Positions 24,401 through 42,441 are shown, numbered from the stretch's first letter. The stretch is DNA of 64,000 nt from Chrysomallon squamiferum (GCA_012295275.1 CM022670.1:10106001-10170000); one strand, 5' to 3'. Translations and numbers: made by a program. Notes: generated from the letters alone by a model not told the origin.

Positions 24401-24655
24401 GAGGTGTGTGTATGTGTAATACATTTGATATGTTGGCTGTCATCAAAAACACTGCATAGATGTCTGGCCACACCTTTCAACCAAAAGGTTGCCGACCCCT
24501 GGCATATGACTATGTTGTGTGCGTTTGCGAGTCATCATGTTACCTGGTATGTCTGGCAGTTGTCGTCGTGCAGGTGATTTGTTTGAACCTGCTTCTGACG
24601 GCAGACGTGAAGTTCGTCGTTTTTTCTGACGATGTTTTGACAAAAGTTTTCCCAT
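18420..24655 (-). CDS. SFK-B: divergent Src-family tyrosine kinase, 10 coding exons, about 497 aa
   Basis: Exons: 24655-24544, 23722-23614, 22826-22719, 22453-22362, 21690-21532, 20873-20727, 20592-20330, 19727-19571, 19138-19007, 18634-18420; phases consistent, no stops. MGKLLSK N-terminus; SH3 AQYDF..DLSF..EWW..GYVPCNY; SH2 FIIRPA..IRHYKI; kinase [36 protein letters not shown]; tail [10 protein letters not shown]. Confidence 0.95.
19930..20013. repeat. 28-bp perfect direct repeat
   Basis: agttcactataaaaccataaaatattta at 19930-19957 and 19986-20013, separated by a poly-A tract. Confidence 0.9.
20925..21330. repeat. AT-rich minisatellite, unit about 30 bp, in SFK-B intron 5
   Basis: Repeated tgtaatgataaactgtaatacgtacttt-like units. 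Confidence 0.9.
22515..22597. repeat. (GA)n microsatellite followed by (CTAT)n; similar (GA/TC)n at 24332-24402, 25364-25419, 38593-38658, 39448-39501
   Basis: Direct reading. Confidence 0.98.
22870..23580. repeat. Degenerate AT-rich tandem array in SFK-B intron 2
   Basis: Recurring aaattgtattt / aatcaaa / tgatg.aaataaaat units. Confidence 0.55.
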
Positions 24656-25789
24656 CACGACAAAATGTAGACTGCGTAAAATAATAATAATAATAATAGT
24701 GGTAGCAGTAATAGAAGGAGTAGTAGTTGTAGTAGTGTTAGTATTAGTAGTAATAGTAGTAGTAATAATAATAATAATTATAATAATAGTAACAATAACC
24801 ATCATCATCACAACAACAGTTTTAATTAGTAAAAGAATAAGTAACAACAATAAAAATTTTAAACTAAAAATCATAGTCATCTATTTCATTAAATGTTTCT
24901 TTTGGGTACATTTGTGTGTATGTATGTATGTGTGTATACCTATTTCAAATACTTCCAAACACACAGTTTTTGTAAATGGTTTTGGCCTGTACTTTCCAAA
25001 TAGTCAGTAATCACCTGTGTCTACAGCGTCTCGATTGGTTAGTTACCGTAAAGGGGAATATTTTTATTTTTTAAAAAGGAAGTTCAGAATTCAAAGGTGC
25101 TCTGCTTCACTGGATTTGTTTTATTCACTAAGCATATTTACAATACAGAAAGGTTGTTATGAATGCAGTCGCGTTATATTTCTACATGCTGTAATATTTA
25201 ATACATTTTGAAGCAAGATAACAATTAACGGATTTTTCTTCTTATAAACTCGAGCATGTGTCTGCTATTTCATAAAAAAAAAAACAACAACAACAGTGCA
25301 ACAGCACAACAACAAAACATACTAACACTCACACAATAACAAAAAAATAAACCCACCAACAACCTCTCTCTCTCTCTCTCTCTCTCTCTCTCTCTCTCTC
25401 TCTCTCTCTCTCTCTCTCTGCTAGGCACCTCGATCTCAAACAAACAATTTCTTTGTGTGTATTTCAGGTTTTTTTAACAGCTCCACATTTTTTTAAATAT
25501 GTATTATTTAAAATTTGTAAGAAGTTACGTATGTATGTATCGGTGGATGTCTGTATGTATTCATATATGTCTGTCTGTATGTCTGTACGTATGTGTGGAT
25601 GTGTATATACGAACTAAAACACGAACATCGATCAAAGATGACGCAAAGATCTCTGACTCTAAATCACGTAAGTAAAACTTGACACGTGAAAACAAGAGCC
25701 TGCTATCGTCAATTACTATGCAACGTCTCCTGTACCTCGCTACCGATTTAAAACAAACAGTGACTGAAGATAAAATATCTAAGAATACA

Positions 25790-41200: not shown

Positions 41201-42441
41201 ACAAATTGATATTTTTATAGTTTAGCTAATTAAAGTTGGAATATGGTGATAACTGCACAAAAACAAAACAGCAGAGGGTTACGCAGATGTTCGTGGTCTG
41301 ATTTAGAAGCTGTATTACATAACTAAGGGAAGTTCAGTTATTTTATAAACAAAGAAACACTGGGATTAACTAACCGAGAATAAACTTTTAAATTGCTAAG
41401 AAAATTCAGAAAGGCTGTCAACACCTGTGCAAGCCCTGTGTGTTTTAATGAGGATCAATCGTTGTGTGAAGCCCTGTGTCATGTTGTTTGAGGTACGTGC
41501 ACTCAACACAAAGGATCACCCATGGAATGGTAATTATGGTTAAATGTCTTTTTATGTAACAAACATCTTGGTTGACAGAATACAGGCAAGCATATTTTTG
41601 TTCCAAGTATATTTTTGTTGGCTACGTGTATTGTGTTATTCTGTGGTTACTTAACTTACACTTGAAAACTAAGGAACAAGTTAAGACAACGTGTTTTAAT
41701 AACTAAAAGCTTAGTTTAAAGTAACCAAATGGGCTTAATTAGAACAGCATTATCTGTCAACAGTATTTTTTACCTTCGTATTGTATCATGAGAATCTTGT
41801 GATTAAATTACAGTTGTTTACTATTGATGGTTAACTTATGTAAACTATAAAATAATTACCCATATTCAGTTCTTGTTTGTGTTATTATTCTCTATTGGAT
41901 ATAGACTACTCATTTAGCAGTTTAAGCTGTTTCAGATCATTAAAACCTTGTCACGTGACGCTGTTATAGTCTGCTACCCTTTAGACAGGACGAGACAACT
42001 TTAAGGTATTAATACCCGTGAGACTGGAGACACCGTGACAAAGTGCTATTCTAATTTTGTTAATTTTCTATTAATACTGGTTTCTAATTCATTTTAAACA
42101 GTTAAATACAAATACTTTTATAACCTAGTAGAGTAAATTTTTGTTCATTTAATGATATCCGTTTAAAAAAAAGTATTTTTGGAAGGGGATTTCTGTTAAA
42201 CATTCACTCCATGCTCCAGGAAGTAAATAATATATATATATTATTATAGAAATGTATGACACACATAATACAATGAATCACCTGTGGGTTGCGGTACGGG
42301 TGGCAGGTCTCTGACTGTGACGTTACTGGGGGACACGGGTCTGGAGTTTGGGCCATTGGAAACAGACAGTCGGCCAACTTCATCGACGGAGGGCGGTTTG
42401 GGTACCGGCTTTTCATCTTCGCGACTGAACACACAACCCAT
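32283..42441 (-). CDS. SFK-C: Src-family tyrosine kinase with alternative exon 6, about 508-511 aa
   Basis: Exons: 42441-42282, 39339-39243, 38814-38710, 38044-37953, 37118-36960, [36078-35923 or 35425-35279], 34620-34361, 33948-33792, 33351-33220, 32500-32283. MGCVFS N-terminus; SH3 [26 protein letters not shown]2 [36 protein letters not shown]; tail [16 protein letters not shown]. Confidence 0.96.
34242..34391. repeat. 38-bp tandem repeat x4 built from the SFK-C exon 7 3' end plus donor
   Basis: Unit ~tacctgtgaagccatgtctacaagtatttcaaatatcg; donor dinucleotides at 34359-60, 34321-22, 34283-84 and 34245-46, exact period 38. Confidence 0.95.
35184..35198 (-). other. Candidate 15-nt microexon in SFK-C intron 6
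   Basis: ctaaactttcag|TCTCCGTTGCTTTGC|gtgagt; frame-preserving in a phase-1 intron. Signal-based only. Confidence 0.4.
35279..35425 (-). CDS. SFK-C alternative exon 6b (SH2 end, linker, P-loop), 147 nt
   Basis: GACTAAC branch-like motif, cctgcag|...AAAG|gttggt, phase 1-1, open: [50 protein letters not shown]. Same length as and similar to SFK-B exon 6. Absent from the ORF track. Confidence 0.92.
35923..36078 (-). CDS. SFK-C alternative exon 6a (SH2 end, linker, P-loop), 156 nt
   Basis: ttacag|...AAAG|gtttgt, phase 1-1, open: [53 protein letters not shown]. The ORF track shows this region only in a wrong frame. Confidence 0.9.
36298..36333 (-). other. Truncated third copy of SFK-C exon 6 (6c): mini-exon or pseudo-exon
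   Basis: Acceptor region nearly duplicates that of 6a (tgtttaaattacag vs tgttcaaattacag) and reads [12 protein letters not shown] in frame, then meets a phase-1 GT (A|gtatgg) or runs through (CA)n to a TAA at about 36203. Confidence 0.6.
37121..37790. repeat. Compound minisatellite with (TG)n spacers abutting the SFK-C exon 5 acceptor
   Basis: Unit aaattaaacac..cagttagacagctgattaca...tatgttataag(tg)n recurs at about 37121, 37207, 37360, 37508 and 37618. Confidence 0.9.
38161..38292 (-). pseudogene. Decayed duplicate of SFK-C exon 4 with flanks
   Basis: Colinear matches to 37940-38097 (caaaataaaa, ttctctaacaa, tgttt.cagga, ttttatct, aaccac, aaaacacatcaatact, cagtttaattta) with indels; donor lost, AG kept. 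Confidence 0.75.
40660..40735. repeat. (TATG)n microsatellite; also 27537-27580. (TA)n at 10195-10243; (TG)n at 6423-6458, 13950-13986, 14103-14140
   Basis: Direct reading. Confidence 0.97.

Follow-up and report, generated by a model that had tools for sequence, protein, structure and literature searches.

Two tandem Src-family kinases of Chrysomallon squamiferum carry a class I SH3-ligand motif ahead of their own SH3 domain

Two of the three Src-family kinase genes identified in the window, a 64,000-nucleotide stretch of the Chrysomallon squamiferum genome (GCA_012295275.1 CM022670.1:10106001-10170000), encode a class I SH3-ligand motif shortly ahead of their own SH3 domain. Judged by sequence comparison, these two kinases (SFK-B and SFK-C) are members of a spiralian Src subfamily of the Aplysia Src1 type and not Tec kinases. 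Tentatively, and a little short of an even chance, we read the motif as one that binds Src-family SH3 domains in trans with an activating effect.

The three genes lie in tandem on the minus strand (C, 42441-32283; B, 24655-18420; A, 11663-2930), and each is composed of 10 coding exons with open frames, GT-AG introns and identical intron phases. SFK-C encodes 508 amino acids when exon 6b is used, and its N-terminus, MGCVFS, is likely to be myristoylated and palmitoylated; its orthologue is the annotated Gigantopelta aegis protein P0001, which is 90% identical to C over one kinase exon. SFK-B (497 aa) pairs with Gigantopelta P0018, from which it follows that the duplication giving rise to B and C is older than the split of these two snails. 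SFK-A (505 aa), which belongs to another subfamily (HRDLAARN) and possesses a long linker, WEI at 5798-5790 and no motif, serves as an internal control. Both B and C present a Gly2 anchor, unique region, SH3, SH2 and kinase in Src-family order, myristoylation being predicted from Gly2, and both contain the SH2 FLVR arginine and the C-terminal regulatory tyrosine, which in C (NYK; 32301..32309, minus strand) is by comparison the equivalent of the Csk site. Their N-termini are 47 and 59 residues long with at most one Cys, and a Pfam search of the first exons gave no match in either. The likely membrane anchors are unlike each other: that of B (24655-24614) consists of Gly2 and a basic patch with no cysteine, that of C (42441-42424) of Gly2 and Cys3. 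Since an AG acceptor is located 32 bases upstream of the ATG of C, exon 1 of this gene may be the first coding exon and not the first exon; its joint with exon 2 is predicted from the splice sites, the phase and Gigantopelta P0001, which has an identical motif-to-SH3 run. Short repeats of the end of C exon 7, including the donor site, are found just within the intron at 34352-34282. Elsewhere in the window, at 61364-62235 on the minus strand, two exon-like frames are probably the 3′ end of an upstream gene; we take them to resemble the C-terminus of RICTOR, and Pfam gave no meaningful match for these frames.

The preliminary description had placed RQLPDIP in B and RDLPPVP in C before the SH3 domain of the same protein, with no motif in A, and the translated exons bear this out. 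RQLPDIP (24545..24565, minus strand) lies 10 residues ahead of AQYDF, RDLPPVP (42292..42312, minus strand) lies 9 residues ahead of GMYDF and 5 ahead of SH3 strand 1, and no [RK]xxPxxP is found ahead of the SH3 of A. That the motif ends the first exon holds for B, where it occupies the final complete codons of coding exon 1, but not for C, where QPT intervenes before the intron. The consensus for class I SH3 ligands is [RK]x[hydrophobic]PxxP, which both motifs fit, and RxLPxxP arose by chance in 0.3% (B) and 0.5% (C) of 100,000 shuffles of each unique domain. Searching the PDB with C exon 1 gave 0 matches at E 10. A second Pro-rich patch in C, KPVPKPP (residues 11-17; 42391..42411, minus strand), had been overlooked at first reading; it is a weaker motif and poorly conserved.

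C is related to proteins of molluscs, brachiopods, annelids and other spiralians, including Aplysia Src1. A quick IQ-TREE search with hand-picked rows (61) and a midpoint root split 39 short-linker proteins, among them B, C and Aplysia Src1, from 22 Trp260-type rows with an SH-aLRT of 100; the latter comprise A and its relatives, two vertebrate kinases, and the sponge SRK and Src42A types. Besides grouping with Aplysia Src1, B and C exhibit the other marks of the subfamily, HRDLRAAN and a short F-R/K-E/D-L-E linker. Trp260, which stands at the end of the SH2-kinase linker and which both lack, is a regulatory hallmark of the Src family and not an absolute criterion of membership.

Conservation of the motif was assessed in 199 proteins. 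A length filter of 430-620 residues kept 155 of them, and merging at 90% core identity reduced these to 112; 15 of the 112 are of the tryptophan type and 97 are without the linker tryptophan, the latter being reduced to 87 by dropping 10 with short N-termini. A strict pattern, [RK]x[LVIP]PxxP within 25 residues of the SH3, is present in 54 of the 87 (B and C counted), whereas 500 composition-keeping shuffles produced it in 1.9 members on average and in 6 at most. It is present in 0 of the 15 Trp260-type relatives, the record of one of these being incomplete and lacking an SH3. Among the carriers that can be named are gastropods, bivalves, a chiton, cephalopods, Lingula and Lamellibrachia. Arg is kept in 51 of the 54 and Leu in 50, with RPLP in 32, and the flanking positions show roughly 10% pairwise identity. 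Conservation in orthologues, by which the preliminary description had proposed that its claim be judged, is thus found across three phyla although the flanks cannot be aligned. It is very improbable on this evidence that the motif arose by chance in a proline-rich disordered region or is a functionless inherited relic, and we regard that explanation as largely refuted, even if the members are related, so that the counts are not independent events, and 33 of the 87 are without the strict motif. These 33 include bryozoan, flatworm, nemertean and orthonectid records and some gastropod paralogues, many of them retaining a looser Pro-rich patch; the motif is therefore not essential, nor does losing Trp260 depend on it.

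Two further sets show how the strict motif is distributed outside this sample. The Src42A/SRK set of 110 new proteins, reduced to 54 by excluding 44 outside the length range, 8 with no SH3 match and 4 with short N-termini, contains it in 6 of the 54, Drosophila Src42A being one, and a further 12 or so show RPLP-D/E half-motifs by eye. The wider set of cluster representatives (144 new proteins, 89 with a whole core match, 82 after removal of 7 short ones) contains it in 5 of 82, namely two Txk-like, two Abl-like and one Src1-like protein.

The 84 members aligned for residue-level comparison were selected for the absence of Trp260, a selection which the tree shows to follow a clade. Their SH3 groove is well kept (W97 and P112 in 84, Y115 in 82, D77 in 81, Y68 in 78), and the SH2 arginine R154 and tail tyrosine Y508 are present in 84/84. 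The RT loop reads AINDDDLSF, as had been described, both in C (39304-39278, within SH3 exons 2-3 at 38710..39339, that is 39339-39243 and 38814-38710, minus strand) and in B (23675-23649, within SH3 exons 2-3 at 22719..23722, minus strand), and ARTKDDLSF in A. The acidity of this loop had been offered as a sign of self-binding, a point which we do not sustain: its net charge is -4.1 in members with the motif and -3.0 in those lacking it, and because it is equally acidic in the Src42A/SRK set (-3.9), an acidic loop is not diagnostic.

The regulatory latch is remodelled in the same proteins. At the position of Src Trp260, both B and C have Leu, as do 74 of the 84 aligned members; the equivalent of Src Tyr326, a residue of the hydrophobic stack, is Leu or Met in 74/84. 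The SH2-kinase linker spans 15 residues in 88 of the 97 proteins, versus at least 17 in all 15 others. Across the subfamily sample, it is 2-3 residues shorter than in Hck and Src while the tail tyrosine is retained (FRELEV at 35360-35343 in C, FRDLEV at 20808-20791 in B). This remodelling of Trp260, stack tyrosine and linker length could prove no less interesting than the motif. One paper calls Trp260 invariant and describes it as stabilizing the inactive state (PMC5727165). AlphaFold2 folded P0001 in the closed Src shape (pLDDT 88; TM 0.90 to 1FMK and 0.55 to 1Y57), which may reflect learning from solved structures.

RxLPxxP is the sequence preferred by Src-family SH3 domains, and for this reason they would be the likeliest partners. 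On our reading the motif would bind, as a conserved class I ligand, a Src-family SH3 on another copy of the kinase or on a paralogue at the membrane; the trans-bound motif would push the SH2-kinase linker aside and make the kinase ready for activation, the closed form being opened in the manner of BTK and MbTEC. Membrane anchoring would provide the local concentration, and phosphorylation of the activation loop in trans might then follow. In BTK, competition of the proline-rich motif with the linker increases activity (PMC10945472, PMC8803661), and mutation of the motif lowers it (PMC8803661, PMC8260988). Both statements apply to MbTEC too, for which cis engagement is favoured and promotes activation (PMC13648279). 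Because the motif activates by linker competition in both, the term "autoregulatory" should not be read as inhibitory, and by analogy the effect in B and C would be activating; for Itk, a review gives an inhibitory reading and also states that deletion costs 50% of basal activity (PMC3116522).

The length of the tether bears on whether such binding occurs in trans or in cis. SH3 strand 1 begins 4 residues ahead of the ALYDY-equivalent, so the free residues number 5 in C, 6 in B and 2 in the seven members whose spacer is 6, Aplysia Src1 among these. Among the 54 carriers the spacer ranges from 6 to 20 with a mode of 9, being 10 or less in 35 and at least 13 in 14; two Txk-like proteins have spacers of 13-14. 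Laederach 2003 is reported to have found that Itk, with a spacer of about 16, folds back and that Rlk, with five fewer residues, dimerizes. The short tether of B and C makes dimerization or the binding of another SH3 likelier than fold-back, and retention of the motif with as few as 2 free residues argues that fold-back would not be the shared function. We consider it unlikely that the motif folds back onto the SH3 of its own molecule, in the way known from Itk, BTK and MbTEC, and competes there with the linker. Its position N-terminal to the SH3 and its class I orientation are shared with the Tec kinases, and cis engagement promotes activation in MbTEC (PMC13648279); spacers of at least 13, seen in 14/54 members and in the scallop X1 records, may permit fold-back. 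B and C themselves have only 5-6 free residues, and Rlk, whose spacer is longer than theirs, reportedly dimerizes instead. The Tec-like autoregulatory or dimerization module envisaged in the preliminary description accordingly stands in part: the comparison with Tec kinases fits, with Txk/Rlk as the nearest architecture, but by the example of BTK and MbTEC the module would not be inhibitory, and the short tether makes fold-back less likely.

Structure prediction was applied to the motif-SH3 fragment of P0001. A two-copy complex scored 0.09 and 0.07 against a mark of 0.32, in runs that did not use the alignment and for which controls were not folded; these scores speak neither for nor against binding. 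AlphaFold2 gave the ten-residue blocks holding the motif pLDDT values of 59 and 72 in the fragment and 54 and 76 in the full-length model. VIA-align of the fragment returned SH3 matches, with no Tec motif-SH3 entry among the 50 matches listed; rows for FUT8 (residues 3-82, rmsd about 5.5) were not taken as evidence.

Another explanation, which we consider possible but somewhat unlikely, is that the motif is a docking site for the SH3 domains of other proteins (adaptors, substrates or regulators, for example of the Grb2, Nck or cortactin types) and governs where the kinase is located or which substrates it takes, without acting on the kinase's own latch. A spacer varying from 6 to 20 would be expected if the geometry relative to the kinase's own SH3 were irrelevant, and scallop isoforms that drop the motif would fit gain or loss of a partner. 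A class II pattern, PxxPx[RK], overlaps in 29 of the 87 members, so that other partners or orientations are possible, and one source states that Tec motifs likely dock other SH3 proteins too (PMC8803661). On the other hand, the motif never lies more than 20 residues from the SH3, most often 9, and the kept Arg and Leu match the Src-family SH3 preference. The readings (trans activation, docking, fold-back, and chance or relic) are not mutually exclusive.

A link between the motif and splice selection of the linker had also been suggested. Exon 6 of C, which we take to span the same stretch as the alternative exons of FynB/FynT, is found in three copies between 36335 and 35279 on the minus strand: a 40-base remnant (36296..36335) whose length disrupts the phase, an intact duplicate of the SH2-end/linker/P-loop exon, 6a (35923..36078), and the expressed linker exon, 6b (35279..35425), with FRELEV placing Leu at the Trp260 position. 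Comparison of 6a with 6b (dN 0.28, dS 1.43) suggests that 6a has been under selection. In 4/4 runs of one study the RNA contigs splice exon 5 to 6b and 6b to exon 7, and their loose ends match both neighbours; none covers exon 6a in any of these runs, such contigs omitting rare forms. The suggested link finds no support. B has the motif with a sole linker exon (20727..20873, minus strand), and the linker does not differ inside 8/8 groups that bring together orthologue isoforms and near-identical records; the presence of the motif is thus independent of which linker is chosen.

Splicing appears instead to act on the motif itself in scallops, as judged from annotation records in the database (P0017/P0094/P0096, P0101/P0093/P0100, P0095/P0098/P0102 and P0099/P0097). 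A 15-residue piece containing the motif is missing from X3 in 3/4 species, and a conserved 7-residue piece is added in X1 in 4/4, which lengthens the spacer from 9 to 16. A cassette exon of 45 bases and an alternative donor site would fit this pattern.

A broader interpretation, which is speculative and in our opinion doubtful, is that spiralian Src1 has rebuilt the Src latch. Loss of Trp260 and the stack tyrosine and a shorter linker would be combined with a built-in SH3 ligand that opens neighbours in trans, scallop splicing would tune the ligand among three states, namely absent, trans-only (spacer 9) and fold-back (16), and Tec-style control would have been reached independently with the tail clamp kept. 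Src and Tec kinases are built on a common core and are generally distinguished by their switches, tail phosphorylation versus a PH domain and proline-rich region; an invertebrate Src subfamily that is widespread, has both the tail and a Tec-like ligand, and lacks the "invariant" tryptophan is a natural experiment on how that core is opened. Aplysia Src1 and the three scallop isoforms, which differ only in motif and spacer, make the idea directly testable. The mechanism is already known from Tec kinases, and the surprise is thereby limited. Among the full-text matches listed, none describes the motif or the loss of Trp260 in invertebrate Src, though the alignment figures of Wu 2008, the paper on Aplysia Src1, may show the motif; the accessible part of PMC6727743 names Src1 and goes no further, and PMC4569314 mentions neither Src1 nor proline.

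Several known systems resemble B and C in part. Insect Src42A shares the ligand, Drosophila records having RPVPQIP 13 residues ahead of the SH3, but it lies on a separate branch (HRDLAARN), carries the strict motif in only 6/54 of its set and has no change of the linker; it is possibly a parallel case. RPV/IPQIP is found 11-13 residues before the SH3 in P0291, P0303, P0298 and other Src42A records, and RPLPDP in other arthropod-type records. Vertebrate c-Src and Hck are the best matches among solved structures (E 1e-151), with the SH2 arginine and tail tyrosine kept, but they retain Trp260 and the longer linker, and none of the vertebrate proteins in the Trp260 control set has a class I motif ahead of the SH3. 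BTK, Itk and MbTEC differ in their PH-TH domains, PIP3 control and mainly cis binding, B and C having neither domain. Of the marks of the Tec family, B and C lack the PH-TH domains or Txk cysteine string and possess the Pro-rich ligand before the SH3; the family is without a C-terminal regulatory tyrosine, whereas B and C have one.

Txk/Rlk is closer in architecture, with a lipid-anchored N-terminus, a single class I motif, SH3-SH2-kinase order and no PH domain, and it was the top feature match (0.89) in the ESM Atlas for residues 1-125 of P0001, which we take as a lead only. Its motif is KPLPPLP, and Txk is described as lacking the tail tyrosine and myristoylation (PMC3207325); B and C differ from it by Gly2, the tail tyrosine, HRDLRAAN and a shorter spacer, and the Txk-like proteins P0424 and P0441 keep the Trp260-equivalent. 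B and C may work like Txk/Rlk in respect of the motif alone. Aplysia californica Src1 (NP_001191506.1; P0024) differs in having a spacer of 6 as against 9-10 and one reported Src1 gene as against the tandem B and C; it is 67% identical to P0001 over 91%, falls on the same side of the tree, and shares the short linker, the lack of Trp260 and a ligand, RPLPRVP, ahead of the SH3.
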